Of a stretch of DNA of 64,000 bases, positions 4,968 to 37,091 are shown one piece after another. The stretch is from positions 15,360 through 79,359 of the forward strand of contig CAZJFE010000001.1 in assembly GCA_964545345.1 (NCBI GenBank). Reading direction: 5' to 3'. The notes beneath the pieces are model-generated. The model searched no databases and was not told where the DNA came from. It saw only the letters and a program-made list of their open reading frames with translations. Within the stretch, counting starts at the first letter, position 1. Each line of letters opens with the position of its first letter. The DNA is from an uncultured Candidatus Saccharibacteria bacterium (lineage in GTDB: Bacteria; Patescibacteriota; Minisyncoccia; UBA6257; WO2-44-18). The translations under genes were made by a program, and so were the position numbers.

Positions 4968-6014
4968 ATGAAGTACAAATTTTTTACCAGCTCTGAAAAA
5001 GCATGGCAGGCGATGCAGGAGGCGGCGGAGTCGGCCAAGAAATCAATTTTCCTGGAAAGTTTTATTTTGACCGATGATCATAAGACGCATAAGTTTTGGC
5101 AGGTCTTGAAAGCGAAGGCCAGAGAGGGGGTGAAGGTAAAAATAATTGTGGATCGGGCGGGGAGTTTTTGGTTTGGCACGATTGATCGCGAGGCCTTCGC
5201 CAGAGCCGGCGCTGAAGTTTTGATCTACAACCGTTGGATTAATCACACACACAGGAAACTGCTGATCGTGGATGAAGCAATTGGTTTTATTGGCGGCGTG
5301 AATATCCGCGGCGAATACGCGGACTGGCTAGATTTGCATTTGCGAACCACCGGACTTCTAGTCAAGCGGCTACTTAGCTCTTTTTCTCAAATATACTTTT
5401 TGTCCGGCGGCCGCGATGAATCGGTAACCGGTTTTCGCAGATGGCGAATTCCTAAGCTGAACGAATCTATTTATCGAGCGAAAACTTGGTTGATTGAGCG
5501 TTGGCCGCTCCATGATAAACGCGCTTTCGTTAACTATTACAAGAAAAAATGCGCTGAGGCGCAGAAAAGCATCAGAATCGTCACACCTTATTTTGTTCCA
5601 CAACCCTGGTTATTCAGGTCTCTGAAAAGAGCGGCCAAGCGCGGGGTGGCAGTAGAAGTTATTTTACCGGCGGACACCGATCACGCGTTAGTTCATCTAG
5701 CGCATCGATATATCATGAAAAGTCTGAGCCCAATGATTAAGTTTATGATGATGCCGACCATGAACCATGCCAAGGTTCTGTTAGTGGATGATCAAGAGGG
5801 GCTAGTCGGATCTAATAATATTGATGGTCAAAGTTTTAATTTTAACTTGGAGGCCAGTGTAGTCTTTCAGCGAAAAGACATGATAGGGGATCTGCGGACG
5901 ATTTTGGATGATTGGAGAAAAAAATCCACCCCATTTTCAGGGGCGGATTTTAAGTGGCGCTGGTACGATCGGATATTAGAATTCCTAGTAGGGCTAGTCT
6001 ATCCGATACTCTAA
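4968..6014 (+). CDS. Phospholipase D-family protein with two HKD motifs (cardiolipin-synthase-like)
   Basis: [19 protein letters not shown] and [20 protein letters not shown] are HxK(x)4D motifs. Confidence 0.8.
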
Positions 6015-7036
6015 ACGACGGTAGTCGCGACTTCTTTGACTCTTTTTTCCAGCGCCTGCAGTAGTTTTTTGTCTTCTACTAATTTTGCTTTTACGTTTTC
6101 AATGCCGACGCCTAATTTTTCTCCCTCAAAGCTGTAAGAGGCGCCCGCTTTTGTCATAACGCCGTATTTCAAAGCGGCGTTAGCGACATCGGCTTCATAG
6201 GACATCCCGGTGCCATACATAATATCAAACTCGGCGATTTTGAAGGGCGCCGCCACTTTATTTTTAACCACTTTCGCTCGGACACGATTACCGACAACAT
6301 CCTCACCTTTTTTAATTACCGCCTCTTTGCGAACATCAATTCTAACTGAAGAATAGAATTTCAACGCCCGCCCTCCGGGGGTGGTTTCCGGGTTGCCGAA
6401 CACGATCCCGATTTTTTCACGTAGCTGATTGATAAAGATCACCATTGTGTTGGATTTAGCCGAGATTGCCGTTAGCTTGCGCAGGGCCTGGGACATCATC
6501 CGTGCCTGTAACCCCATGTATTGCGCGCCCATTTCTCCTTCAATTTCTACTTTCGGGGTAAGAGCGGCCACTGAATCTACGACGACCACATCAATAATCC
6601 CGGAGCGCACCAGACTTTCCAGGATGTTTAGCGCTTCTTCGCCATTGTCCGGTTGGGAGATCAACAATTCCTTTGTTTTCACTCCCAATTTTCCGGCATA
6701 TTCCGGGTCCATGGCGTGCTCCGCGTCAATAAAAGCGGCCTTGCCTCCCTTTCTTTGGGCTTGAGCAATAACGTTTAGAGCCAAGGTAGTTTTACCGGAA
6801 GACTCCGGTCCATATATTTCCACGATCCTTCCTTTCGGTAATCCGCCTACCCCAAGAGCAAGATCTAGGGAAAAGGATCCGGTGGGAATAGATTCCACGT
6901 TGAGCTTTTTCGCGTCACCCAACTTCATAATCGCTCCCTCGCCGAACTTTTCCTGCAAAGACGACAGCAGACTATCCATGTCTACTTTTCCGCCCGCTTT
7001 TTCCGCTCCCTCCTTGGCCTCTTTTTTATTGGTCAT
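6011..7036 (-). CDS. recA: Recombinase RecA
   Basis: [19 protein letters not shown] (Walker A), [24 protein letters not shown]2-loop [25 protein letters not shown]. Confidence 0.97.
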
Positions 7037-9974: not shown

Positions 9975-10550
9975 GTGGCCAATATTCCTAAAAAATTAGT
10001 TATCGGTTTTGATATGGACGGCGTTATTATCAATAACTATAAAAACAAAATTTCTCTCGCTAAGAAATTCGGGTTTGATTTGAAGCTGGAGGATACCCCG
10101 GCGGAGCGATTTCACGCTGTAGTGCCGGAAGTAATTCTCAACCAAATGCGCCCTCTATTGTATGACGATCCGGAGACGGCGCTGAAAGCTGAAACCGTTC
10201 AGGGCGCCATTGACGGGTTGAGGCGAGTTCGGGAATCGGGGATTCCTTATTTTTTGATCTCTCGGAGGAGGAACTGGGCGATGGCTGTCCGTTCACTTGA
10301 GCATCATGATCTTTGGCCAAGGTTTTTCAATCAGAAGAATGCCTTTTTCGTTTTTGAGCCGGAAGACAAAGACGAGCGGGCCAAAGCCCTAGGAATAAAT
10401 CTTTACGTAGATGACCAGCCGACTGTTTTAGAAAAGTTAGTTTCGGTAGAGAGCCGGATTTTGTTTGATCAATTCGGAATCTTTGGTAAGCCAAACTTCC
10501 CGCATAAAAAAGTTTCTTCTTGGGGGGAGTTGTTACCTAACATATTTTAA
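9975..10550 (+). CDS. HAD-superfamily hydrolase (nucleotidase-like)
   Basis: HAD motif I GFDMDGVII; 191 aa. Confidence 0.6.
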   Translation: MANIPKKLVIGFDMDGVIINNYKNKISLAKKFGFDLKLEDTPAERFHAVVPEVILNQMRPLLYDDPETALKAETVQGAIDGLRRVRESGIPYFLISRRRNWAMAVRSLEHHDLWPRFFNQKNAFFVFEPEDKDERAKALGINLYVDDQPTVLEKLVSVESRILFDQFGIFGKPNFPHKKVSSWGELLPNIF

Positions 10551-11884
10551 TGAAGGAGGTAATTTTCAAAGCTTACGATGTTCGTGGCCGTTATCCCGAC
10601 GAGATCAATGAAGAGGCGGTTGCGGAGACTGCTTCTGTCTTAGCGAAGCGTTGGAAGAAGGGGAAAGTCTTGATTGGCCACGACGCCCGACTAAGCTCCC
10701 CCTCTCTATACAAAGCGATTTCCCGGTCGCTTGTCGTTGGCCGTAAGTCGTTGGTCGTCGTTTCCCTCGGCGAGTGCACCACTCCGATGTTTTATTTCTG
10801 GTGCCACAGATTAAAATCACCCGGAATTATGATTACTGCTTCTCACAATCCCAAAGATTTTAATGGCTTGAAAGTCGTTGGACCCACCGGGGAGGTTATT
10901 AGTGGCTCGGAAATTAAGAAATGGATCCCGTTAGAAACCGCGCCCGCGCTTGCGCGCCCCGGAGGGGCTGTGGGGCGGGCTGTTTCTAACGGGATGGATT
11001 ATTTAAAACCCTATGTTGGTTTTCTAGAAAAGAAGGTGAAATTAGCCGGTCCGCTGAGTGTGGTTTTTGATTGCTTCAACGGCGTGACTGGCATTGTGGT
11101 TAGTAAACTAAAAGCAAATGGTTTGAAAGCGAGAGTTTTGAATCACCAGCCCGATGGGCGTTTCCCCGCGCATGGGCCGAATCCGATGTTGTCGGACGCT
11201 TTAAGTCAGCTGAAAAAAGAAGTTAAAAAACAAGAAGCCGATTTCGGAGCGGCTTTTGATGCCGATGGCGATAGGGTTTTCTTTGTTGACGACCGCGGAA
11301 GGGAAGTCCCTAGCGACGCGGTGTTGGGTTTGATTAGTCAGGCATTCCGCGGACCAATCGCGGTGGACGTTCGCGCCGGTTATTTGGCGAAAGAGTTGAT
11401 GGGAGCCGGCGGGAAAAGGATTATTGAATCCCGGGTCGGGCATTATTTCTTCAAAAAGCTTATGAAGGCCAAGAAAGCCGGATTCGGCGGTGAGATGTCC
11501 GGGCATTACTATTCATCTTTAGCGCCGGGTAAGTTTTTTGATTCGGGAATCGCCGCGGCGCTTTATTTCGCCAACGAAGTATCCGAGCTGAAGAGATTAG
11601 GCGGTAAGCTTTCTGATTGGTTGGATAGTTTACCGAAATATTATCGTTCCGGTGAGTCAAATTTTGTCATTCGAGATAAAAATGAGGTGATTAAGGAAGT
11701 TAGTCGGAGGTACTCCAGGATGGCTAGGAAGATTTCCAGAAAGGACGGGTTGAAAATGGAATTTGCCGATTGGTGGTTTATTATTCGCCCATCGCAAACC
11801 GAGGATTTTCTCCGATTGAACTTGGAGGCGAAAGATAAAAAAGTTTTTCAAAAACGACTTGCCGAACTGCGCCGGTTTTTCTAA
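10550..11884 (+). CDS. Phosphohexomutase (phosphomannomutase/phosphoglucomutase/GlmM family)
   Basis: Active-site TASHNPKDFNGLK, metal loop FDADGDR, 444 aa. Confidence 0.85.
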   Translation: MKEVIFKAYDVRGRYPDEINEEAVAETASVLAKRWKKGKVLIGHDARLSSPSLYKAISRSLVVGRKSLVVVSLGECTTPMFYFWCHRLKSPGIMITASHNPKDFNGLKVVGPTGEVISGSEIKKWIPLETAPALARPGGAVGRAVSNGMDYLKPYVGFLEKKVKLAGPLSVVFDCFNGVTGIVVSKLKANGLKARVLNHQPDGRFPAHGPNPMLSDALSQLKKEVKKQEADFGAAFDADGDRVFFVDDRGREVPSDAVLGLISQAFRGPIAVDVRAGYLAKELMGAGGKRIIESRVGHYFFKKLMKAKKAGFGGEMSGHYYSSLAPGKFFDSGIAAALYFANEVSELKRLGGKLSDWLDSLPKYYRSGESNFVIRDKNEVIKEVSRRYSRMARKISRKDGLKMEFADWWFIIRPSQTEDFLRLNLEAKDKKVFQKRLAELRRFF

Positions 11885-11920
11885 ACTCACAGTAGTTTCT
11901 TTAGAGAAAGAGGAGGCTAG

Positions 11921-12706
11921 GTGAAAATCTTCGACGGCCGTTTGTTGTCCAAGAAAATTCTGGAAAAGTTGAAATCTTGTCCGAAACCGGCTCAACAGCT
12001 GGCGATTCTCGTGCCGCACACTAACGACAGTCCTAGTGAGGGGTTTCTTGCGGAAGTCCGCGGTTCTGCTCAATCACTGGGATTAAGGGTTAGAGTTCAT
12101 TACAAAACTCCGTTTGCCACAACCGATGAATTCATCAACGACTTAAATCGCTTGGCGGCGGATCCGGAAGTCGGTGGAATAGTTTTGATCTTGCCTCTGC
12201 CGGAAGGCGTTGATCGTGAGAGGGTTTTGAAAGCAATCTCTATCGGTAAAGATATTGATGCGTTGAATCCTGACAACAGCACGGTCGTTTCTCCCGCGAG
12301 TTTGGCGGTGAAACATATTTGGCAAGAATTATATAACGACTTAGACCCTGATGTTTGCTGGGAGATGGCGGTGGTGGGCCGAGGTTTGTTAATCGGGAAA
12401 CCAATTGCCGAAATGTTGAGGAAAGAAGAGCAAAATGTAACGGTTTATAACAGCAAAACTCCGCTGGAAGGATTGAAGAAAGCGATGATGGTGATTTTGG
12501 GGACGGGAGTTCCGAAGTTGGTGTCTCCTAGTATGTTGCAAGAAGAAGCGATCGTGATTGATTTCGGATATCCCGGAGATTTTGATCACGCTCACCCGGA
12601 GGCGGATAAAATTTCTTGGTATGTTCCGGCTAAAGGTGGCACTGGACCCCTGCTAGTGGCCTGTTTGTTGGAAACCTTCTACCAATTGACAGGAAGTCTC
12701 AAATAA
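11921..12706 (+). CDS. FolD-like paralog (methylene-THF dehydrogenase/cyclohydrolase fold), divergent N-terminal motif; GTG start
   Basis: VVGRGLLIGKPIAEML and PAKGGTGPLLVACLLETFY match FolD; N-terminal substrate/Lys motif region is diverged relative to the second copy at 38346. Confidence 0.6.
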   Translation: MKIFDGRLLSKKILEKLKSCPKPAQQLAILVPHTNDSPSEGFLAEVRGSAQSLGLRVRVHYKTPFATTDEFINDLNRLAADPEVGGIVLILPLPEGVDRERVLKAISIGKDIDALNPDNSTVVSPASLAVKHIWQELYNDLDPDVCWEMAVVGRGLLIGKPIAEMLRKEEQNVTVYNSKTPLEGLKKAMMVILGTGVPKLVSPSMLQEEAIVIDFGYPGDFDHAHPEADKISWYVPAKGGTGPLLVACLLETFYQLTGSLK

Positions 12707-12794
12707 GTTATTATCTTCCCGGTTCGTAAAGAGGCAATTCAGTCCATCGTGGATTGATCGCCTGAGCTTCGTACGTTGATTCAAGGAGGAAGAA

Positions 12795-13280
12795 ATGGGT
12801 ACTGGTAAGAGACTTTGGAAGCTCGTTGCCGTTCTCGTTATTGTTTGCTCTCTCTCAGGATGCATGGGTAGCGCCGGAGGTCTCGGCTGGAGTCTGACTC
12901 CTTATGGAGGTATCGGCGGCAACACCGATCGCAGCTATCAGAAGGGCTTGAGTTGGCAGGCTGGTGTCTCGGTCACCTTTTTTAACCAGTTCCCTGGCGC
13001 TCCGGCGGTTCCACAGTTCCCCGGCTACTACCGAAACGATGTGCACGTAGATAATACCAACAACAACAGCAATACCCAGAGTCAGACACAGAATCAGTCC
13101 CAAAGTCAGTCGCAGTCTCAGGAGCAGGGCCAGAGTCAGACGACCCTTCCTCCGCCTTCGGGTGGCGATGGAGATGATGACGAGGACTGCGAAGGCAAGG
13201 ATCACGGGCATGGTCATGATCATCATGATGACGATCACCCTGGTCATGGACACGGTCACGATTGTGACGACGACGATTAG
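12795..13280 (+). CDS. Lipoprotein with Gln/Ser repeat linker and His/Asp-rich C-terminal tail (putative metal-binding)
   Basis: Signal peptide with lipobox LSGC; QSQTQNQSQSQSQSQEQGQSQ; tail KDHGHGHDHHDDDHPGHGHGHDCDDDD; SD aaggagg. Confidence 0.7.
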   Translation: MGTGKRLWKLVAVLVIVCSLSGCMGSAGGLGWSLTPYGGIGGNTDRSYQKGLSWQAGVSVTFFNQFPGAPAVPQFPGYYRNDVHVDNTNNNSNTQSQTQNQSQSQSQSQEQGQSQTTLPPPSGGDGDDDEDCEGKDHGHGHDHHDDDHPGHGHGHDCDDDD

Positions 13281-13294
13281 TTTAATAACAAGCT

Positions 13295-13323
13295 CGCCCC
13301 TCAGAAGAGGGGCGGTTTTTTAT
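13295..13323 (+). terminator. Rho-independent terminator between convergent genes
   Basis: gcccctc-agaa-gaggggc then ggttttttat. Confidence 0.7.
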
Positions 13324-13325
13324 CT

Positions 13326-13892
13326 CTAAAATAGTGTCGCCGGCAGAATTTCTTCTTTCCAATTGAACTCGGCTTTTGTCGGTTGATCCGAATTTCTTTG
13401 GGGTACCATCAGGTGCCCCTGTTTTTTTGCTAAATCGTATAATTCTTTGGTGATTTTTACGTCGTTTAAACAATAGGCCGCCAGCTCATCCAGTTTGCCT
13501 TCATTATATAAGCGGATTGCTTCTAAGCCGGTGGAGTGGGTTTTCCCAACGCCTAAATTAGTTTTTGCCAGGGCGTCTAAACTAATCCTATGGCCCAAAA
13601 CCAATTCAATCTCATCTAGCAAATCCAAACGTGGCAATGCAAAGATATTAAATTTGCAATGTTTTTCCAAAACCGGCAAATCAAATCGATTGATACTAAA
13701 GCCAATTAAAAGCCCCGCTTTTTGAATGAGCGAGGCGAGTTTGTCCATTTCGTTTTCTGCAAACGAAAGGTACTTGTCTTGATTATAGGAGTAGACGCCA
13801 ACGAAAGAGACATCCAATTTCCCTACATTATGGTGACCGCCGACATCGGCAAAGCTATTTTTGGTTTCAATATCAATTACTAATTTATCCAT
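13326..13892 (-). CDS. DEDD-family 3'-5' exonuclease (DnaQ/RNase T-like fold)
   Basis: Exo I motif VIDIETKN, later YCLNDVKIT (Exo III-like Y..D); 188 aa. Confidence 0.6.
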   Translation of the reverse strand: MDKLVIDIETKNSFADVGGHHNVGKLDVSFVGVYSYNQDKYLSFAENEMDKLASLIQKAGLLIGFSINRFDLPVLEKHCKFNIFALPRLDLLDEIELVLGHRISLDALAKTNLGVGKTHSTGLEAIRLYNEGKLDELAAYCLNDVKITKELYDLAKKQGHLMVPQRNSDQPTKAEFNWKEEILPATLF

Positions 13893-13908
13893 AATTCAAC
13901 GGAGTCGC

Positions 13909-14394
13909 CTAAACGTGCTTGTCGGCAACGCTAGAGGCGGCATAGCTATCCGGCTTGGTTTTGACTTCAAAGTTATTAGCGCGGATCATTCCGACCAGTT
14001 CTTGGATCATCTTTTTGGTTTCGCCATTTTGCCCGATATCAACGTGAATCGCGAAATCAAATTTAGGGGCATCGGAAAAGGCCGCGAGTCCCTCTGAGAA
14101 TTTATGGGCGGCATCAAGGGAAATAAGCACCTCTCGGGTGATGCGATCCCGCAGCGAGTGAAATTTAACTACATCGCCGCTTCTGGTCCAGAAATAGCGA
14201 GCTCCCTTGCCGATCCGATGCACGACGATTGCCGTGACGAAATCCGCTTTTTGGTCGGCATTGGCTTGTGAGTCGGTACCGATTGTAACCCGGTAATCCG
14301 AAAGCCGGTCATGCTTCATAAAGTCCACAATTTGCTGGAGCACTTGATCGGCGCTAAGCGGGAACGGGATACTGCTATTGAAGTATTTATCCAT
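13909..14394 (-). CDS. YkuK/DUF458-family RNase H-like protein
   Basis: VTIGTDSQ...FVTAIVVHR pattern typical of DUF458; 161 aa. Confidence 0.45.
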   Translation of the reverse strand: MDKYFNSSIPFPLSADQVLQQIVDFMKHDRLSDYRVTIGTDSQANADQKADFVTAIVVHRIGKGARYFWTRSGDVVKFHSLRDRITREVLISLDAAHKFSEGLAAFSDAPKFDFAIHVDIGQNGETKKMIQELVGMIRANNFEVKTKPDSYAASSVADKHV

Positions 14395-29224: not shown

Positions 29225-29252
29225 ATGAAATCCCGTTAGAAATTCTACTCAA
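29225..29252. repeat. Outer inverted repeat A (28 bp, atgaaatcccgttagaaattctactcaa); perfect inverted copy at 37064-37091
   Basis: Exact 28/28 reverse-complement match read directly from the sequence. Confidence 0.9.
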
Positions 29253-29317
29253 TAAAGTTATAAAGAAAATATGATAATTATCCAAAGAAAATTAAGGTTT
29301 AGCCAAAGGTCATTGTT

Positions 29318-29343
29318 TGGTCAATATTTCTAACGGGATGAAA
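29318..29343. repeat. Inner inverted repeat B (26 bp, tggtcaatatttctaacgggATGaaa) containing the start codon of the GT gene; perfect inverted copy at 36972-36997; 14-nt core complementary to repeat A
   Basis: Exact 26/26 reverse-complement match; ATG at 29338-29340 lies inside the repeat. Confidence 0.9.
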
Positions 29344-30405
29344 ATTTTATTTATTACTCAAAAAGCGGATAAAAATGATGACGTGCTTGGGGTCTATCAT
29401 CGTTGGATAGAGGGGCTTGCTCAACATTTCGAGAAAGTTTCTGTCATTTGTTTATACAAAGGGCAGACGGCGCTTCCGGAGAATGTATCAGTCTATTCTT
29501 TGGGTAAAGAACTGGCTGTCAGTTCTCAGTGGCAGTACGCGCTTCGCTTCCTGAAATTGATCTGGCAATTAAGGAATGATTATGACCGGGTTTTCGTTCA
29601 TATGAATCCGGAATATGTGGTTTTAGGCGGATTATTTTGGAAATTATCCAGGAAAAAAGTTGTGCTTTGGTATGCTCACTATCTGAGCAATTTGAAACTA
29701 AGAATCGCGGTTTTGTTGGCGGATCGGGTCGTTACTTCAATTCGTTTAGCGTTTCCCTTTCCGACAAAAAAGTTACAGGTTTTACAACAAGGGATTGACA
29801 CTATGCTTTTCTCTCCAGCTAAAACCGCTCAGTCGTCTTCTGATAACTTGAACGTATTATTCTTAGGCAGGATCGCTCCGGTAAAGAATTTGGATGTTCT
29901 CGTGAGGGCCATCCAGCTCGCGCGTCAGCGGATTCCGGTCAAACTTTCAGTAGTGGGGGCGCCGACTCTGGGGCGTTCCGCGGAGCGTGGTTATTATACG
30001 GGGATTAAAAAATTAGTGGACGATCTGGGCTTAGCCGGCTTAGTGAACTTTCATAATCCGGTGGCGAATAAGGATACGCCGGCAATTTACCGGAAGCATG
30101 ATTTGTTTGTTAACCTTACGGTAACCGGAAGTTTTGATAAGAGTACGCTGGAAGCGATGGCTTGTGGAATTCCAGTGCTGATAAGCAACCTTGCCTTTCG
30201 AGATATCCTGGGACCAGAGTTGAGCAACCAGTTGATGTTTAAAGAAGGAGACCATCGGGATTTAGCGGACAAAATTTCTCAAATCGCCGCGCTGAGCGTT
30301 GAGGATCGGGAGAAGCTTGGAGGAAGATTAAGAGAGATTATTGTGAATCAGCATGACCTCGGTAGGTTAGTGATTCGCCTTGCCGAGACCATTAAGACTA
30401 TTTAA
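29338..30405 (+). CDS. Glycosyltransferase family 4
   Basis: FLGRIAPVKNLDVLVRAIQLA...DKSTLEAMACGIPVLISN; ATG 29338 preferred over TTG 29317. Confidence 0.8.
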   Translation: MKILFITQKADKNDDVLGVYHRWIEGLAQHFEKVSVICLYKGQTALPENVSVYSLGKELAVSSQWQYALRFLKLIWQLRNDYDRVFVHMNPEYVVLGGLFWKLSRKKVVLWYAHYLSNLKLRIAVLLADRVVTSIRLAFPFPTKKLQVLQQGIDTMLFSPAKTAQSSSDNLNVLFLGRIAPVKNLDVLVRAIQLARQRIPVKLSVVGAPTLGRSAERGYYTGIKKLVDDLGLAGLVNFHNPVANKDTPAIYRKHDLFVNLTVTGSFDKSTLEAMACGIPVLISNLAFRDILGPELSNQLMFKEGDHRDLADKISQIAALSVEDREKLGGRLREIIVNQHDLGRLVIRLAETIKTI

Positions 30406-30410
30406 TCCAA

Positions 30411-31808
30411 ATGATTATTGATGAATCAGATCGCAAACACAGTTTCCTCCACTATTTTCTAAAGGGGGAGGCAACTAAAAGAGTTTTTGACGGCATTTCA
30501 ACGGCGGTAGGTTTGGTTAATTCCTATTTCATTATTTCTAATCTTTCGGTTTTTCACTTCGGATTGTATCAGTTGATGCTCTCGCTGGTTTCCATATTAG
30601 ATAATTTCAATTTGGATGTGATTGATGGCGTAGTACAAATAGACATGCGAAGAAGCTTCAATGTCGGCAACCGGTCTGCCGCTAAACGTCTTTATTGGGA
30701 CTACGCCAAGATCAAGTTAGGTATTTCTGTGGTTTTCGCGACAGCCGTGTTTTTTGGATCTTCTTTGATCTCCAAATATTACGGCGAGGATCTGGGATTA
30801 TTTATCCGGATATCCAGCTTCCTTTTGATTTTTAGAGCCCTTCAATCATTGGAGACAATGCTTCTAAAGTCCCTGCTCACTTTTTCTTATTGGTCCTATC
30901 CGGCCATTCGTGAATCCGCTAAGTTGTTGTTTGTTCTCGGGTTTTTGTTTTTTTCCGGCCAATTCACTATCACTCAGGTTATCACCGCTCACGTGATTGC
31001 TGACGGCGTGGCGGTTGTGGTGATGACGCTGACGCTTTTTATTAATAAATATCGCAAAGCTTTTATGGGCGTGGTGATGGAATCCAAATCGTTAGTATGG
31101 GGGGTTGTCAGCACCTACGGGAAATGGGCAATGTTACGCTACCTATTCTCCAAAGTCAGCAAAAATTCCACTCCTTGGCTGATTAAATATTTCATTAACA
31201 CCGAAGCAGTCGCCTTCTATGCGTTAGCAGTTAACCTAATCGCGTTTATTGAAAACTTTTTCCCGATGGATGGTTTAGCCCAAATATTGGCTTTCAAGGC
31301 GGACAACCTAGGGCAGATTTCTTCTATCTTTAAGAGGGCGGTTAAGTACGCGTTTTGGTTAGGGGTGATATTTATGATTGGCGGGGCGGTGGTTGCCGCG
31401 CCGGTTGTGGTATTTATCTTTCCAAAGTATGGACCAGCGATGCCGGTTTTCTACGTTATGCTTCTCGCTTTGCCGGTGTTTGGACTCTATAAGATTTTAA
31501 AGAGTACCCTGACGGTTCTCAGAGAGCAGAAGATTTTGACCATGAGGGTCTTTAATGAGGCGGTGTTGATCCCCGCCACTTTAGTTATTTTCTTGCCGTT
31601 CTTTCGGTTGGTTGGAGCCGGCTTCACTTACGCCTTACTGTATTTGGAGCGTTCTTGGTTTTTCTACAGTCAATTGGTCAAAAAATACCCGGATTTCAAA
31701 ATTAAGCCCTGGCAGTTTCTAAGATTTGACCGAGCTGATCGCGATCTGTTAGAAAGGGTGATTGCCGATCCCTGGAGAAAGGCGAAGAACTTAATCGGGG
31801 TTGAATAA
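30411..31808 (+). CDS. Oligosaccharide flippase (Wzx-like, MOP superfamily) membrane protein
   Basis: 465 aa, ~12 predicted TM helices, embedded in glycan cluster. Confidence 0.65.
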   Translation: MIIDESDRKHSFLHYFLKGEATKRVFDGISTAVGLVNSYFIISNLSVFHFGLYQLMLSLVSILDNFNLDVIDGVVQIDMRRSFNVGNRSAAKRLYWDYAKIKLGISVVFATAVFFGSSLISKYYGEDLGLFIRISSFLLIFRALQSLETMLLKSLLTFSYWSYPAIRESAKLLFVLGFLFFSGQFTITQVITAHVIADGVAVVVMTLTLFINKYRKAFMGVVMESKSLVWGVVSTYGKWAMLRYLFSKVSKNSTPWLIKYFINTEAVAFYALAVNLIAFIENFFPMDGLAQILAFKADNLGQISSIFKRAVKYAFWLGVIFMIGGAVVAAPVVVFIFPKYGPAMPVFYVMLLALPVFGLYKILKSTLTVLREQKILTMRVFNEAVLIPATLVIFLPFFRLVGAGFTYALLYLERSWFFYSQLVKKYPDFKIKPWQFLRFDRADRDLLERVIADPWRKAKNLIGVE

Positions 31809-31810
31809 CT

Positions 31811-32971
31811 ATGGGGCAAAAAAGAAAAATTTGTTTGTTTTCTGGCAAGCGCGGCGGGTTCGGCGCTTATTTGCCGTTGATGCGATTAATTGACGCTGAC
31901 CCGGACCTGGAATTACAGATTCTTCTGGGCGATATGCACGCTTCAAAAGAATTTGGCCAGACCGTTGATGAAGCCAGAAAGTTCTTTCCGGAAGCGAAAA
32001 TAGAGGTTATTGAGATGGGCGCCGGTCGCGGTGATAGTCCGGTAGTTCGGGCGGAGAATTTGGGAATGTGTCTGCAGAAAGCTCCGGCGATTTTAGAGAA
32101 GCTAGGGCCGGATTTGGTTTTAGTCCATGGCGACAGGGCGGAGCATTTAATGGTGGCGCTGGCGGCGCTCAATCTTGGTATTCCGGTGGGCCACACTCAA
32201 GGAGGAGAGGTCTCGGGGAACATTGATGATGTTCAGCGGCATGCCATTACCAAGCTGGCCCATCTGCATTTTCCGGAGACGGAAGCCGCCGCCGATCGTT
32301 TGAAGAAACTTGGAGAAGAAACTTGGAGGATTAACGTGGTCGGTTCTACTTACATAGATCGGATCGCGAAGAAGATGTATACACCAACTTCGGAAGCCAG
32401 AGCAAAGTATGGTTTGGAGCCAGAAGAAAAATATTTCTTGGTAATTTTCCACCCGGACACTTATCTTTCTCGTGAAGAAAATTATCAGGCGGCTAAAAAT
32501 ATTTTGGCGGCCATGAAAGATTCGGGATATAAGGCGGCTATCACCTATCCTTGCTCCGACCCCGGCTATCAGGGGGTTTTAGACGCGATGGCGGAAGTTA
32601 AGAATGATCCGCAATTTTTAATTTACAAAAATATAGATAATTTAGATTTTTTGGGATTAATGGCTGGCGCGCGGGCGATCTTGGGTAATTCCTCTTCAGC
32701 TATCGTAGAGGCGCCATATTTCCAGTTGGCGGCCGTTAACGTTGGAAAGCGTCAGATGGGACGTGACCGAGAGGAAAATGTAGTTGATTGTGAGGCGACC
32801 GTTGACGGCATCAAATCCAAGATAAGATTTGTTTTGGAGGATTCAAGTTTCCGGGAGAAATTGAAGCAATGCGGCTACCGGTTGGGAAACGGGCAAGCCG
32901 CCGAAAAAATCCTCGCTGTGTTGAAGACCGCCGAAATCAACGAAAAGTTGCTCAAAAAGCGCCTTGTCTAA
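31811..32971 (+). CDS. UDP-N-acetylglucosamine 2-epimerase, hydrolysing type (NeuC-like)
   Basis: N-term KICLFSGKRGGFGAYLPLMRLI, HGDRAEHLMVALAALNLGIPVGHTQGGEVSGNID, 386 aa; family typical of nonulosonic-acid pathways. Confidence 0.75.
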   Translation: MGQKRKICLFSGKRGGFGAYLPLMRLIDADPDLELQILLGDMHASKEFGQTVDEARKFFPEAKIEVIEMGAGRGDSPVVRAENLGMCLQKAPAILEKLGPDLVLVHGDRAEHLMVALAALNLGIPVGHTQGGEVSGNIDDVQRHAITKLAHLHFPETEAAADRLKKLGEETWRINVVGSTYIDRIAKKMYTPTSEARAKYGLEPEEKYFLVIFHPDTYLSREENYQAAKNILAAMKDSGYKAAITYPCSDPGYQGVLDAMAEVKNDPQFLIYKNIDNLDFLGLMAGARAILGNSSSAIVEAPYFQLAAVNVGKRQMGRDREENVVDCEATVDGIKSKIRFVLEDSSFREKLKQCGYRLGNGQAAEKILAVLKTAEINEKLLKKRLV

Positions 32972-33000
32972 AGACGTCTTTCTTGTTAATTTATTAACTA

Positions 33001-34167
33001 ATGAATTCCAAGCCAAAAGTTTTGATTTTAGGCGGCGATGGCTATTTGGGTTGGCCGACAGCCATGCATTTTGCTCGCCAGGGGTATCAGGTTGCGATTG
33101 CCGATAATATGTCCAAGCGTGTCTGGGAGGCCGAGCTCGGCACGGCGCCGCTTTGGAGCATCCCATTGGTTCATAAGCGGGTTCGTTTATGGAAGGACAA
33201 AGCTGGTCATGAGATAAAACTTTATATTGGTGACATTGCGCAGAATCATCGTTTTGTTTACAAAATGTTTGAGGAATTCCGTCCGGATGCTGTAGTGCAT
33301 TACGCGGAACAGCCATCCGCTCCTTATTCCATGCACAGCCGAGAGAAAGCGGTGAACACTCAGGTCAACAATGTGGCCGGCAACCTGAATGTTTTATTCG
33401 CGATGCGGAAATATACTCCTGATGCTCATTTGGTGAAGCTGGGAACTATGGGCGAGTATGGAACTCCGAACATTGATATTGAGGAGGGTTGGTTAGAGAT
33501 TGAGCACAAAGGCAGAAAAGATAGGGTGTTGTTCCCGAAGAAGCCGGGGTCGTTTTATCACTTAAGCAAAGTACACGACAGCCACAACATTGAATTCGCC
33601 TGCCGAATCTGGGGATTGCGAGCAACCGACCTGAACCAAGGCGTGGTCTATGGTCTTGAGACAGAGGAGACTAAGATGCATCCCGAACTTCTTACCAGTT
33701 TCCATTACGATGATGTTTTCGGTACCGCGTTAAACCGATTTTGCGTTCAGGCGGTTGCCGGTGTACCGCTCACGGTATATGGTCAAGGCGGACAAAAGCG
33801 CGGATTTTTAAATATTAGAGACACTTTGCAGTGTGTTCAAATCGCAGTTGATAATCCGGCGAAATCGGGAGAATTCCGGGTGTTCAACCAGTTCACCGAA
33901 GTTTTTTCAGTGTTGGATTTGGCCAAAACTGTTCAGCAAGCTAGCGAGGCCTTAGGTATCAAGGTTTCCATCAACAATATTCCTAATCCACGAGTAGAGG
34001 CCGAACAGCATTATTACAATCCGAAAAATGATTCATTGCTTAAGTTGGGATTAAAGCCCCGCAATCTCTCTAATGAGCTGATCAATTCCATGCTGGTGAA
34101 TATCCAAAAATCCAAGGATCAGATTGAGCACCACACGATTTTGCCGAAGATCACTTGGAAACAGTAA
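33001..34167 (+). CDS. UDP-sulfoquinovose synthase (SQD1/Agl3 family, extended SDR)
   Basis: Near-colinear match to remembered SQD1 blocks: GGDGYLGW, HYAEQPSAPYSM, VKLGTMGEYGTPNIDIEEG, FYHLSKVHDSHNI, ATDLNQGVVYG, FGTALNRFCVQA, NPRVEAEQHYYN. Confidence 0.85.
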   Translation: MNSKPKVLILGGDGYLGWPTAMHFARQGYQVAIADNMSKRVWEAELGTAPLWSIPLVHKRVRLWKDKAGHEIKLYIGDIAQNHRFVYKMFEEFRPDAVVHYAEQPSAPYSMHSREKAVNTQVNNVAGNLNVLFAMRKYTPDAHLVKLGTMGEYGTPNIDIEEGWLEIEHKGRKDRVLFPKKPGSFYHLSKVHDSHNIEFACRIWGLRATDLNQGVVYGLETEETKMHPELLTSFHYDDVFGTALNRFCVQAVAGVPLTVYGQGGQKRGFLNIRDTLQCVQIAVDNPAKSGEFRVFNQFTEVFSVLDLAKTVQQASEALGIKVSINNIPNPRVEAEQHYYNPKNDSLLKLGLKPRNLSNELINSMLVNIQKSKDQIEHHTILPKITWKQ

Positions 34168-34883
34168 TGTCTAATAATCCGAAAGTTTTAGCGATTATTC
34201 CAGCGAGAGGCGGTTCCAAATCCATTCCCCATAAAAATATTGTTTCGTTAGCGGGCAAACCACTTTTGAGTTATGCGGTTAATGCGATCAAAGCGAGCAA
34301 ATCCGTGAATCGTCTGATCGTGGACACCGATGATCAGAAAATCGCCGATGTGGCGAAAGTTTTGGGGGCGGAGGTTCCGTATTTACGACCGGCCGAGCTT
34401 GCCACCGACACCGCCGCCACGATGCCAGTACTGCGTAATTCGTTGGAATGGTTAGCGAAAAATGAAAATTATTTCCCGGATTATATACTGTTGGTTCAAG
34501 CCACTTCCCCGTTTATTAAAACCTCCGAAATTGAAGCCGCGATTGATCTGATAAAAAAGAATTCCGAAGCCGACTCTGTTACCAGTGTTATTGAGGTGCC
34601 AAACAATTTTCATCCGATTAACTCCCGACTGATCACCGATGATGGCTGGTTGCAATTCGTGGATTCGGTTGAGCGGGCGAAATATAACCAGCGGCAGTCC
34701 AAGCCGAAGCGATACGCGATCGGTAATCTCTGGGTCTTTACGCCCGAAGTGATACAAAAAAAAGATATTCCGATCGGTGATCACTGCTTGCCACTGATTA
34801 TTAAGCCGATGAGCGCTTTTGACATTGATACTCCGGAGGACCTAGAGGTCGCCGAAGCGCTTTTACCAATCGCTTTACGATGA
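34167..34883 (+). CDS. N-acylneuraminate (CMP-nonulosonate/CMP-Kdo family) cytidylyltransferase
   Basis: LAIIPARGGSKSIPHKNI...YLRPAELATD; TAATG overlap with previous stop. Confidence 0.8.
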   Translation: MSNNPKVLAIIPARGGSKSIPHKNIVSLAGKPLLSYAVNAIKASKSVNRLIVDTDDQKIADVAKVLGAEVPYLRPAELATDTAATMPVLRNSLEWLAKNENYFPDYILLVQATSPFIKTSEIEAAIDLIKKNSEADSVTSVIEVPNNFHPINSRLITDDGWLQFVDSVERAKYNQRQSKPKRYAIGNLWVFTPEVIQKKDIPIGDHCLPLIIKPMSAFDIDTPEDLEVAEALLPIALR

Positions 34884-36235
34884 GGACTATTTTTTTAACT
34901 GCTTTCACTAATTTTGTTGTCCGAAATATTTTGGACACGGAAGTTCTGGGCATTTTGAAGTCCGATCCGAATTTGAGGATTGTTATTTTAGCCCCTGATG
35001 AGGAAAGAGATTATTTGGCCAAGCATTTTTCTTCCAACAATGTATTAGTTGAGGGGGTCAGGATGTTGCCGGTTGGCACCACGAAAGCTCTGATTAGTTT
35101 TATCTGTCGGTCTCTAGTTAAGACTTATACCACCGAGATGTTCGCCAAACTGCGCTATAGCCGTCTGGAGTATTTTTGGTACTATTTTCTCGTTAACGTA
35201 TTAGCTGGGCGAGTTTGGTTCATGAAGTTCATGCGTTTTCTAGACAATCTTCTGCTCACTAAGGATCGTTTTGCTACTTATTTTGAAAAATATCAGCCAT
35301 CGTTAGTTTTTTCTACCGACATCACCGATCGGAGCACCGGGGAGAGTGATATTGATCTGATTCGTGAGGCGAAGCATCGGGGTGTTCCGGTTGTTGGTAT
35401 GGTACGTTCCTGGGATAATCTTACTTCCAGGGGGATTATTCGGCAGGTCCCGGACAAAATAATTCTGCATAATGAAATTTTGAAGAATGAGTGTGTGAAA
35501 TATCACGGTATAACGCCGGAGAAGATTATTGTCACGGGTATACCCCATTACGACAACTACCTGAAAGTTAAAAAACTTTCTAGGGAAGAATTTTACCGAC
35601 CCCTTGGCCTCGATCCTAATAAAAAGACTGTATTTTTTGTAGTGACGGCCGATGGCTTCCTGGAAAAGCAGTTTGGCGGCCGCAAGCCGACTATTAATCG
35701 GCATATTTTGGAGCAATTAACCAAATTAAATTCGGACAAATATCAAATTCTAGTTCGCTTCCCCTTAATCGGAACGGTTGATCTTGGAGATTTCAAAACA
35801 CCGGCTAATATGGTTTTTGATCATCCGGGGAAACTGTTTGGCAAGGGAGAGTTGGATCGTGACTCGGATTACCACCTGATTAATTCTTTGTATCACTGCG
35901 ACGTTGGTATTCCTGGTCCCTCAACCATTGCGGCCGACACTCTAATTTTTGATAAACCACTAATAGTGGTCGGTTTTGATAAAGAAAAAGATTTGCCCAT
36001 GGAGGCGAGTATGAGAAAGTTTCTAGCTTTGGAGCATCTTCGGCCGCTTACCGATCTTGGCGCGGCTAGGATCGCCAATGACGAATCGGAGTTGGCCGAT
36101 CTGCTGAATAAGTATTTAGAAAATCCTAAGTCCGACGCGGAAAATCGCCAAAAGGCGATTGAGGCAATTTGCTGGAGATTAGATGGCCAGGCGAGTGAAC
36201 GAGTGGCGCAGTCTATTTTGTCGGGGTTGCGCTAG
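34880..36235 (+). CDS. Uncharacterised GT-B-like putative glycosyl-/phospho-transferase, paralog 1 of 3 (motif RSWDNLTSRG; DHPG; FDKPLIVVGFD)
   Basis: Shares N-terminal MRTIF/MRTIL, RSWDN(L/V)T(S/T) and C-terminal FDKPVI blocks with 41282-42622 and 62882-64000; family not identified. Confidence 0.5.
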   Translation: MRTIFLTAFTNFVVRNILDTEVLGILKSDPNLRIVILAPDEERDYLAKHFSSNNVLVEGVRMLPVGTTKALISFICRSLVKTYTTEMFAKLRYSRLEYFWYYFLVNVLAGRVWFMKFMRFLDNLLLTKDRFATYFEKYQPSLVFSTDITDRSTGESDIDLIREAKHRGVPVVGMVRSWDNLTSRGIIRQVPDKIILHNEILKNECVKYHGITPEKIIVTGIPHYDNYLKVKKLSREEFYRPLGLDPNKKTVFFVVTADGFLEKQFGGRKPTINRHILEQLTKLNSDKYQILVRFPLIGTVDLGDFKTPANMVFDHPGKLFGKGELDRDSDYHLINSLYHCDVGIPGPSTIAADTLIFDKPLIVVGFDKEKDLPMEASMRKFLALEHLRPLTDLGAARIANDESELADLLNKYLENPKSDAENRQKAIEAICWRLDGQASERVAQSILSGLR

Positions 36236-36977
36236 GATCTTTTTGAATCACGTAGCAGACGTTGTAGGCCCAGCGGTATTTCAATAATTGTTCCAGTTTT
36301 GGAAATCTTTTTGCAATCCGGAACACTATCTCCCGCAGTTTTCCTTTCCAGCCGCGGAAAACTTTCGGGGTAACCAAGTACTCTATTCCTAGAACTTTAA
36401 ATCCGCGGAAAATAGTTTTTTCCAAAATTCCTTTTGGCAAGAGAGCGATGTGATTATTTTCCGGACGATAGCTGGCGAAATATCCTTTGCGCATTAAGAA
36501 ATCTACGCTTGGTCGGGATAAAACGTGGGGCGTGGTAAATAGGAAGATGCCGCCGGGCTTCAGAACTCGGTTTACTTCTCGAGACGCGTAAAAAGGGTTT
36601 TCTAAATGAGGAATTACGCACCAGGCGGTTACCGCGTCAAAGGTATTATCGGCCCAAGGAAGTTTTTCAGTGCTTAACTCGGCTAACTTATATTCTTTCA
36701 CTAGCGGCCTAACCTCAGCCGGGAGATATTCTAAAATGTCGTGCGCGTACAGGTTTTTGAAGCCCGCGTTATCTAGTTGCTGTAGAAACAGCCCGCTGGC
36801 AGTGCCCAGATCCAAAACCTTAGCTTCTTCTTTTTTCCACCCGAGGTCCTTAGCGTAAGAGTTTAGAACATCAATTCCAAAGTTGTAGCGGACGTTTTTA
36901 CCGGCGCAATTTTTCAACTTTCCCGCCACTTCGTCTTTGTGACTGCCCCGCAACTCCTCGGTTGTAAAATATTTCAT
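36213..36977 (-). CDS. Class I SAM-dependent methyltransferase (paralog of 39128-39817)
   Basis: VLDLGTASGLF motif I; FDAVTAWCVIPHLENP; start codon embedded in inner inverted repeat B'. Confidence 0.75.
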   Translation of the reverse strand: MKYFTTEELRGSHKDEVAGKLKNCAGKNVRYNFGIDVLNSYAKDLGWKKEEAKVLDLGTASGLFLQQLDNAGFKNLYAHDILEYLPAEVRPLVKEYKLAELSTEKLPWADNTFDAVTAWCVIPHLENPFYASREVNRVLKPGGIFLFTTPHVLSRPSVDFLMRKGYFASYRPENNHIALLPKGILEKTIFRGFKVLGIEYLVTPKVFRGWKGKLREIVFRIAKRFPKLEQLLKYRWAYNVCYVIQKDPSATPTK

Positions 36978-36997
36978 CCCGTTAGAAATATTGACCA
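36972..36997. repeat. Inner inverted repeat B' (reverse complement of 29318-29343), contains the minus-strand start codon of the methyltransferase
   Basis: Exact 26-bp match. Confidence 0.9.
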
Positions 36998-37063
36998 GAC
37001 AACGATTTTATAAAATAGATTTGTTTCATATCATTATATTACCCTTTAGTCCTCCTGACTCTG

Positions 37064-37091
37064 TTGAGTAGAATTTCTAACGGGATTTCAT
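37064..37091. repeat. Outer inverted repeat A' (reverse complement of 29225-29252)
   Basis: Exact 28-bp match. Confidence 0.9.

Follow-up and report, generated by a model that had tools for sequence, protein, structure and literature searches.

The seven-gene glycan-biosynthesis block in a 64,000-nt stretch of an uncultured Candidatus Saccharibacteria genome (contig CAZJFE010000001.1, positions 15,360 to 79,359; hereafter the window) is bracketed by inverted repeats. A first-pass annotation, made from the sequence alone, had read these as a regulatory leader or operator pair, or as the boundaries of an invertible or mobile 7.65-kb cassette. Our analysis points elsewhere: the two flanks are very probably independent, oppositely oriented insertions of a small non-autonomous element of the MITE (miniature inverted-repeat transposable element) type, a third copy of which lies in a phosphomannomutase gene. 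That these units are mobile insertions is highly likely. The evidence is comparative: exact presence or absence at orthologous sites, copies of the same subfamilies at unrelated loci, and coding versions that share their ends with the non-coding ones, one of them in the window's own genome. The coding versions encode a GIY-YIG nuclease, which we favour, by a modest margin of confidence, as the driver of movement.

A recurring hairpin in the window

Direct sequence comparison and a repeat search agreed that positions 29225-29252 (A) are the exact reverse complement of 37064-37091 (A'), and 29318-29343 (B) that of 36972-36997 (B'). The exactness reported in the first-pass annotation is thus real, and it is far above chance, the expectation for a perfect inverted pair of 26-28 nt in 64 kb being ~1e-6 by our own calculation. 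The ~120-bp flanks are, as had also been stated, inverted copies of each other, and the GT4 glycosyltransferase gene (29338) and the minus-strand methyltransferase gene (36977) do begin with the same leader, start codon and second codon, B and B' both containing ...TTTCTAACGGG-ATG-AAA. The 14-nt core ATCCCGTTAGAAAT occurs at 29230(+), 29326(-), 36976(+) and 37073(-), and so forms two local inverted-repeat pairs, one per flank, with spacers of 82 and 83 nt. With up to two mismatches allowed, the core had 6 matches in the window against 0.68 expected, and none of 100 shuffles gave 6. RNA folding returned the 14-bp stem reaching the start codon that had been predicted for each flank, as the minimum-free-energy structure (z = -2.6 to -3.4).

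A third pair with the same core (ATCCCGTTAGAAAC / GTTTCTAACGGGAT), missed earlier, lies at 10925-10995, with arms at 10925 and 10982, a GC-rich 43-nt spacer and an RNA fold z of -5. Because this pair sits inside the phosphomannomutase open reading frame (ORF) 10550-11884, the repeating unit is the local hairpin and not the 7.65-kb bracket. The hairpins at the GT4, methyltransferase and phosphomannomutase genes are referred to below as units 1, 2 and 3 (Table 1). By Pfam, all three touch sugar-metabolism genes, and the short units have no ORF of their own. The interiors of the two flanks differ, as the first-pass annotation had it, but not by simple divergence: each represents a subfamily of its own, whose members at other loci, in other genomes, are 81-90% identical. 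The interior of unit 1 is 90% identical to a copy before a NUDIX-type gene (L135), and that of unit 2 is 81-82% identical to copies before an M16-peptidase-like gene (L133) and a methyltransferase gene (L134).

Two smaller features were seen at these loci. The duplicated ATG of units 1 and 2 is the start of a 4-codon upstream ORF (uORF), ATG AAA TCC CGT TAG (MKSR*; 29225-29239, and 37077-37091 on the minus strand), whose TAG stop lies inside the conserved left arm. A lone half-site, CCCTTTAGAAA, with one mismatch and without a partner, is found on the minus strand at 30456-30466, inside the gene for a 465-aa membrane protein, and is probably due to chance.

Empty sites in relatives

By 100% protein matches, the window belongs to Parcubacteria group bacterium Gr01-1014_19. 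Three relatives, L126, L127 and L128, whose serine hydroxymethyltransferases (SHMT) are 92%, 87% and 82% identical to that of the window, carry the block in the window's order (GT, GT, GT4, 465-aa membrane protein, two epimerases, cytidylyltransferase, Glyphos_transf protein, minus-strand methyltransferase and plus-strand SHMT, GT standing for glycosyltransferase) and in the same orientation. The gap between the GT and GT4 genes is 1-2 nt in L126 and L127, and that between the methyltransferase and SHMT genes 23-42 nt. Site 1 is empty in both: these relatives read 'taacATGAAAAttct' where the window has 'taatATGAAAT[unit]ATGAAAAtttt' (in longer context, ...ctaacATGAAAATTCT... versus ...ttaatATGAAAT[106 nt]ATGAAAATTTT...). 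Site 2 is empty in L126, which reads 'aaaatATTTCATtgtaattt' versus 'aaaatATTTCAT[unit]ATTTCATtgtaattt' in the window (in longer context, ...aaaatATTTCATtgtaatttagac... versus ...aaaatATTTCAT[107 nt]ATTTCATtgtaatttagac...). The sequence ...TAACATGAAAATT... is an example of an empty target. In L128, site 1 (2105-2312) holds two tandem identical 101-nt units of a different subfamily, with arms CCCGTTAGAAGTT... and ATGTGT between them. With the site of unit 3, described below, exact empty sites were found in relatives for all three window units.

Because L126 and L127 keep the gene order and have exact empty sites, the 7.65-kb block is, on this comparison, ancestral syntenic chromosome, and only its flanks were inserted. 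The edge genes share a leader, ATG and AAA because an ATGAAA target was duplicated next to the element's end, not because they share a regulatory leader. The self-contained glycan module of the first-pass annotation is hard to reconcile with a block that recurs in one orientation in the window and all three relatives, two of which (L126 and L127) lack the repeats, and the same synteny and empty sites refute the reading as boundaries of an invertible or mobile cassette. Something at the locus is indeed mobile, as had been suspected, but the mobile unit is each hairpin and not the block. Since the apparent glycan module reduces to independent insertions of one mobile hairpin, no cassette-level mechanism is needed.

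Unit 3 and the split phosphomannomutase gene

Unit 3 lies between Pfam domains I and II of the 444-aa phosphomannomutase encoded by ORF 10550-11884, and occupies the codon at which, in the split form of this gene, the C-terminal ORF starts. L001 provides the empty site: ATGGAT occurs once there, against ATGGAT[67 nt]ATGGAT in the window. In L001, at 5630-6918, two overlapping ORFs encode domain I (127 aa) and, in the -1 frame, domains II-IV (~300 aa), with the junction 'caATGGATTATTTAA'. In the window and in L124, a 73-nt insertion (3n+1) joins both ORFs in frame and adds 24 residues (IPLETAPALARPGGAVGRAVSNGM). Judging from ~300-aa matches that start MDYLK, the split gene appears to occur in dozens of Patescibacteria. 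Programmed ribosomal bypass or an intron was considered for unit 3 and rejected, because removal of the unit restores the frameshifted two-ORF state of L001. Window and L124 agree at 97% within the insertion and at ~80% in its flanks, which fits either homing-like spread or strong structural constraint. The unit 3 interior recurs (91%) at another locus in L055, another Parcubacteria genome.

Table 1. Units, targets and context in the window
Feature	Position or sequence	Strand	Remarks
Unit 1, non-coding hairpin element	29231..29338	+	Core CCCG...CGGG 29232-29337, 106 nt; terminal T/A pair 29231/29338
Unit 1 arms	ATCCCGTTAGAAAT / ATTTCTAACGGGAT	+	Repeat search
Left duplicated target ATGAAA(T), copy of GT4 start codon and Lys codon	29225..29231	+	
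Right duplicated target, functional GT4 start (gene 29338-30405)	29338..29344	+	A of ATG is the element's terminal base
Unit 2, non-coding hairpin element, second subfamily, opposite orientation	36977..37085	-	Core 36978-37084, 107 nt
Duplicated target ATGAAAT, functional methyltransferase start (gene 36213-36977, minus)	36971..36977	-	
Second copy of duplicated target ATGAAAT, SHMT side	37085..37091	-	
Unit 3, short GC-rich hairpin element	10926..10994	+	Core 10927-10993, 67 nt; ATGGAT at 10921-10926 and 10994-10999
Unoccupied target ATGAAGT, start codon of PLD-like gene 4968-6014	4968..4974	+	Orthologous site in L124 occupied
Seven-gene glycan-biosynthesis block, context only, no part of any element	29338..36977	.	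Pfam, synteny

The family across phyla

A scan of one genome per species (GTDB) used the pattern CCCGTTAGAAA, 31-91 nt, TTTCTAACGGG, an exact 22-base paired pattern; in general form a unit is Y-CCCGTTAG...CTAACGGG-R, with ends Y-CCCGTTAGA. At least 120 genome stretches carried the exact 22-base end pattern, against about 2 expected by chance (own calculation). Assigned to groups by record title, the matches listed comprised 52 stretches from Patescibacteria, 28 from Planctomycetota, 16 from Desulfobacterota and allies, 3 from Nitrospirota, 2 each from Omnitrophota and Gammaproteobacteria, 1 each from KSB1, WOR-3, Stahlbacteria and Edwardsbacteria, and 13 unclassified; among these matches the family thus spans roughly ten phyla. 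Phages were rejected as vectors, since only 3 stretches with the pattern were found in 2.9 million viral contigs.

The units were always convergent pairs, and ~30% of 8-kb loci had at least two, some of them tandem or nested. They measure 24-128 nt core to core, with perfect 13-bp arms, and the GC content of the interiors is 0.14-0.87. Conservation is limited to the ends, about 130 of 145 interiors being unique; one metagenome-assembled genome (MAG) has three copies with an identical interior (L013, L015, L063). The genes downstream of units are mutually unrelated, and include those for Asp/Lys-tRNA synthetase, topoisomerase I, FtsK, UvrD, Pro-tRNA synthetase, T2SS-F, a sugar dehydratase, and NUDIX-type and M16-peptidase-like proteins.

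This distribution bears on whether the repeats form a glycan-gene regulatory leader (RNA switch or operator pair) or bound a 7.65-kb cassette. Exact inverted repeats of 28 and 26 nt around seven glycan genes, a start codon within the predicted stem and the sugar-metabolism context of all three window copies had made that reading attractive. We now consider it very improbable: besides the synteny of the block, the motif precedes unrelated housekeeping genes across about ten phyla, no recombinase is encoded in the window or near the 120 loci listed, sigma-70 promoter and intrinsic terminator scans gave signals not above those in shuffles, and across the window no Rfam family matched at its gathering threshold, a permissive search returning only sub-threshold noise of the miRNA-hairpin type. 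The first-pass annotation had itself named a core found before many unrelated genes as evidence against its proposal, and that is where the genome scan found it. A binding site for a glycan-specific regulator was rejected on the same ground, the downstream genes being unrelated.

Two unusual arrangements came to light in the scans. A larger composite structure is found in MAG DX4.bin27 (L015, 2046-2369 and 4832-5155): two units lie within long inverted repeats of ~325 nt, 89-95% identical, and between these repeats are 2.46 kb that include a 686-aa ORF of the Ig-like (Big_5) type. A Bacteroidota-like contig from the metagenome scan (L132, 700-830) has abutted palindromes, TTTCTAAC-NN-GTTAGAAA, beside a lone partnerless CCCGTTAGAAATTCTACTC; this is probably chance or a different element or context.

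Ends, target duplication and start codons

The terminal inverted repeats are 13 bp long, Y-CCCGTTAGAAAN (Y-CCCGTTAGAAA-N), and enclose a free interior of about 5-100 nt. The pair just outside CCCG...CGGG is C-G in 86 cases and T-A in 54, 96% complementary versus 51% expected, and position 12 also covaries (85% complementary versus 46% expected); the stem is taken as 13 bp because there is no general pairing further inward. The sequences flanking a unit are direct repeats, agreeing at 3.9 of 6 positions versus 2.55 in shuffled pairings (maximum 2.78), with the strongest signal at T-N-N-A. The best model is a target duplication of 4-5 bp, T(N)2-3A; as the target consensus RT..AY mimics the terminal pair, the element boundary is not placeable to the base. 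In their target duplication and empty sites the units agree with MITEs, and they are likewise short (below ~300 bp), non-coding, bounded by terminal inverted repeats and present at many unrelated loci.

With the duplicated TG, the terminal R makes an ATG or GTG right behind ...CGGG. An insertion on a start codon thus rebuilds it, which accounts for those units that lie exactly on start codons. When 135 units were compared with mock RTNNAY sites, counting ORFs of at least 80 codons, 36% of the units were exactly on a start codon versus 10% of mock sites, and 9.6% were on a tight stop/start junction versus 0.2%. About 10% of units were in read-through frames.

A coding version with a GIY-YIG nuclease

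A search for degenerate partners of solitary half-sites led to pairs ~265-270 nt apart that enclose a small gene. These full-length copies of ~280 nt have the same ends, target type and duplication as the short units, and their sole gene encodes an 86-87-aa Slx1/UPF0213-like GIY-YIG nuclease. Coding copies are present in L124, L064, L137 (the window's own genome), L138 and L146; the nuclease gene lies within repeats in five phyla or lineages, and the Planctomycete, Giovannonibacteria and Omnitrophota copies share ends. The 275-nt copy in L124 reads ...gggATGAAGT[CCCGTTAGAGACAAT ATG ... 87 codons ... TTC CTG TCT CTA ACG GG]ATGAAGTata..., the left arm being the leader of the nuclease gene and the right arm its last codons, TCT CTA ACG GG (S-L-T-G). 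The duplicated target supplies the rest of its TGA stop (GG-A-TGA), which shares bases with the ATG of the following gene. Position 4968 of the window, where ATGAAGT occurs once, is the empty site for this copy, which has ATGAAGT on both sides. In L137, an 82% identical homolog (P0242) lies on the start codon of an EPSP-synthase-family gene and is flanked on both sides by ATGAAAT, the heptamer duplicated at units 1 and 2.

The nuclease matches the GIY-YIG family PF01541 with 52-56 bits against a cut-off of 22.6 and consists of this single domain. Invariant positions among 24 sequences include Y6, Y17, R27, H31, E51 and N77; the catalytic-type residues and the tail KRFL-LTG do not vary either, and the protein as a whole is strongly conserved (82% column identity across phyla). 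The nearest solved chains are UPF0213 BH0048 (E = 2e-6) and EF2693, and UPF0213 proteins of this type were described as the minimal prokaryotic Slx1-like form in a 2006 superfamily survey (PMC1564403). A search for homologs gave 2917 matches, the best 120 of which are 70-82% identical. Among these best 120, 85 end exactly in SLTG; ~20 extend a few residues past the tail, as expected where the flank supplies no stop; and 7 end in FLFLTG, whose codons TTT CTA ACG GG match the arm TTTCTAACGGG of the short units. P0252 and about 10 other homologs, some of them 94 aa long, start with MNPVRDNM-, reading in frame from the duplicated host ATG through the left arm, and the nuclease may thus be translated with the initiation signals of the host gene. 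The arm codons TCT CTA ACG are invariant in five diverged genes in which other conserved residues use 2-4 synonymous codons, and constraint thus acts on the DNA sequence of the repeat as well as on the protein. The GIY-YIG genes of L004 and L019 belong to other clades and lack the arms; the one in L004 (about 2000-2300, plus-strand coordinates) is a small gene whose product is 36% identical, and it is flanked by direct repeats resembling tRNA 5' halves (gggcccatagctcatccggtagag).

Two further observations concern the relatives. L126, the closest of them, has a diversity-generating-retroelement-like insert at 11448-13913 (218-aa ORF, bAvd PF22296, reverse transcriptase RVT_1) between SHMT and FolD, which are adjacent in the window (38342/38346) without such an insert, and L124 has a free-standing LAGLIDADG endonuclease ORF beside NifU (928-1371).

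How the units may move, and alternatives

Movement might proceed as follows. The nuclease would recognise the hairpin or cruciform made by the repeats and cut it, as suggested by the covarying ends and by analogy with Slx1, which is structure-selective, and with hairpin-guided Ssn (see below); host repair would then join the ends, and the short non-coding units would be mobilised in trans. Insertions on start codons may be favoured, or may survive as harmless, the start being regenerated and the host gene staying translatable. The ATGA stop/start overlap of coding copies would allow translational coupling to the host gene. The hairpin may also affect translation; more speculatively, where a ribosome occupies the 4-codon uORF, as it could at units 1 and 2, the stem burying the real start may be opened. 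Taking these features together, we tentatively propose that the ~280-bp elements are autonomous transposons that operate with a structure-specific GIY-YIG nuclease and host repair, that have evolved to land on start codons, to be translated from host initiation signals and to hand the ribosome on via ATGA, and that spawn hairpin MITEs. The full-length members may be the smallest self-contained mobile elements known in bacteria.

Several points weigh against this account. The window itself has no nuclease gene. To our knowledge, no strand-transfer or ligation activity has been described for an 86-aa GIY-YIG domain, so the protein is not a complete transposase by itself. The interiors of the short units have no similarity to the nuclease gene, and these units are therefore not recent deletion derivatives of it; their arms also differ from those of the coding copies at one compensated pair (AAA/TTT versus AGA/TCT). 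In many copies, two of the five coding ones (L138 and L064) among them, the duplication is imperfect. Finally, the polymorphism among relatives could in part reflect precise loss, by slippage between short direct repeats across a perfect hairpin.

The units might instead be ordinary MITEs moved in trans by a DDE transposase, for example one making 4-5-bp duplications, with the GIY-YIG gene a passenger or a chance presence between captured ends. Terminal inverted repeats, short duplications and a palindromic target consensus make up the classic DDE signature, the GIY-YIG fold is established as unable to join DNA alone, and the short units do not derive from the nuclease gene by deletion. Such an origin nevertheless seems improbable to us. 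No transposase is common to the 120 loci listed: all-against-all clustering of 1396 ORFs from these loci gave no shared transposase, recombinase or Y1 gene, the largest shared cluster covering 7 loci, and a search for long-range end pairs with matching flanks found no long copy with these ends. The nuclease, on the other hand, is the sole protein found between the repeats in five phyla or lineages, and the right repeat is built into its invariant C-terminal codons and constrained at synonymous sites. The ends also covary almost perfectly, as would be expected if a hairpin were required, and DDE enzymes, which bind duplex DNA, make no such demand.

Alternatively, nuclease and repeats might be a domesticated pair that serves the host, as Ssn and its NTS repeats do, with the repeats kept by selection as single-stranded DNA (ssDNA) cleavage sites that modulate transformation or recombination. 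There is a precedent in Ssn, a 94-aa single-domain GIY-YIG protein that cuts ssDNA next to hairpin repeats flanking its gene and also scattered genome-wide (Chenal et al. 2025, PMC11893778). All three window copies have exact arms, no decayed copies were seen at up to two mismatches and the interiors are free, all of which, with the conservation of the protein, would fit such a role. The published SRM motif is absent (0 matches), however, and domestication alone leaves the target duplications, empty sites, tandem and nested copies and start-codon precision unexplained. We regard it as an unlikely origin, if a better one than a DDE transposase; as a later stage it is compatible with the mobile elements proposed here.

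Other architectures were rejected for more specific reasons. An inverton (83-nt invertible promoter) does not agree with the interiors of units 1 and 2, whose orientation with respect to the gene they adjoin is the same, and there is no recombinase. A CRISPR-like arrangement (arm-X-arm as a 28-nt palindromic repeat) would form arrays, whereas the units are single convergent pairs. The core site of a site-specific recombinase (11-6-11) with a mini-circle was set aside, as the duplicated hexamer varies among copies and a circle of 60-110 bp is implausible. Integron attC sites were dismissed on the reversed order of the heptamers, the perfect stem and the want of an integrase or array.

Implications

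We thus appear to be dealing with one very widespread element family, found in candidate-phyla-radiation bacteria, Planctomycetota, Desulfobacterota and others, and supported beyond its architecture by empty sites and duplications. As a MITE it is of a known kind; what is new is that it has a GIY-YIG partner, keeps its ends identical across phyla and lies so precisely on start codons. As the phosphomannomutase gene illustrates, the family can fuse split genes in frame. For the annotation of reduced genomes it matters that units displace predicted starts, give rise to artificial uORFs or to N-terminal extensions (MNPVRDNM...) and cause ORFs to be joined or split. Should the nuclease prove sufficient for movement, prokaryotic DNA transposons would gain a new enzymatic class and, with it, their smallest autonomous member.

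Comparison with known systems

A literature search with the core sequence string gave only chance primer matches, and one on MITEs in these phyla and on repeat-bounded GIY-YIG elements found no prior description except Ssn, which is absence of evidence only. Among non-coding families, the Correia elements of Neisseria and the Rickettsia palindromic elements come near: they are 50-150 bp long, with terminal inverted repeats and short duplications, lie next to or inside genes and are co-transcribed as hairpins, and the Rickettsia elements insert in frame into ORFs, like unit 3. Both families are lineage-restricted and derived from, or attributed to, conventional insertion sequence (IS) transposases. 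The present family differs in having identical 12-nt ends across about ten phyla, a third of its copies on start codons and a GIY-YIG coding partner.

REP/REPIN-RAYT (TnpA-REP) and IS200/IS605 systems resemble it: one small nuclease-type protein, encoded between copies of the repeat, disperses hairpin repeats. Here, covariation suggests that a hairpin is required. Those systems depend on HUH/Y1 enzymes, leave the target unduplicated and have repeats specific to the host, whereas here duplications are present and the protein is of the GIY-YIG type. GIY-YIG homing endonucleases (I-TevI, Seg) are likewise selfish nuclease genes between or within host genes, and the 97% identity of unit 3 against ~80% in its flanks resembles homing. 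They have separate DNA-binding domains, no terminal inverted repeats or target duplications and no non-coding derivatives; the nuclease described here scores 23 bits with TIGR01453, a weak match far below the 56-bit cut-off. Integron attC sites are also hairpins of 57-141 nt with conserved ends and variable interiors, and have GTTRRRY-like and RYYYAAC-like heptamers (GTTAGAA and TTCTAAC here). Their order is RYYYAAC...GTTRRRY on both strands, against GTTAGAA...TTCTAAC here. The present stems pair perfectly, with no extrahelical bases, and the units neither come with an integrase nor bound cassettes.

The closest known system is Ssn with its SRM/NTS hairpin repeats. Both have a very small single-domain GIY-YIG protein (94 aa in Ssn, 86-87 aa here) and many solo copies of the repeat near other genes, and in both the gene is repeat-bounded, though here by the two arms of one hairpin. 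Recognition of the hairpin by the nuclease was demonstrated for Ssn (PMC11893778), and is proposed here by analogy. The repeats themselves differ: neither the window nor the five GIY-YIG loci, searched on both strands, matched the SRM consensus HGTCWY N0-2 YYVSBRH N0-5 WNVSBRG N0-2 RNCYNB, and Ssn repeats are compact, self-contained 20-50-nt hairpins on either side of the gene, whereas here the arms pair across the gene or variable interior as one hairpin, with one arm inside the coding sequence. The hosts differ too, being Patescibacteria, Planctomycetota, Desulfobacterota and similar MAGs here, and mainly Pseudomonadati in the Ssn survey of RefSeq genomes. The authors of that survey reported a co-occurrence of 81% for Ssn and SRM, discussed REP/RAYT and IS200/IS605 elements, noted an IS-like gene architecture and hypothesised a mobile origin of Ssn (PMC11893778). 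What is a hypothesis there is indicated here by empty sites, target duplications and start-codon targeting. The present family thus looks like a still-mobile form of Ssn-type systems, and makes their suspected mobile descent testable with an 87-residue protein and a 30-nt hairpin.

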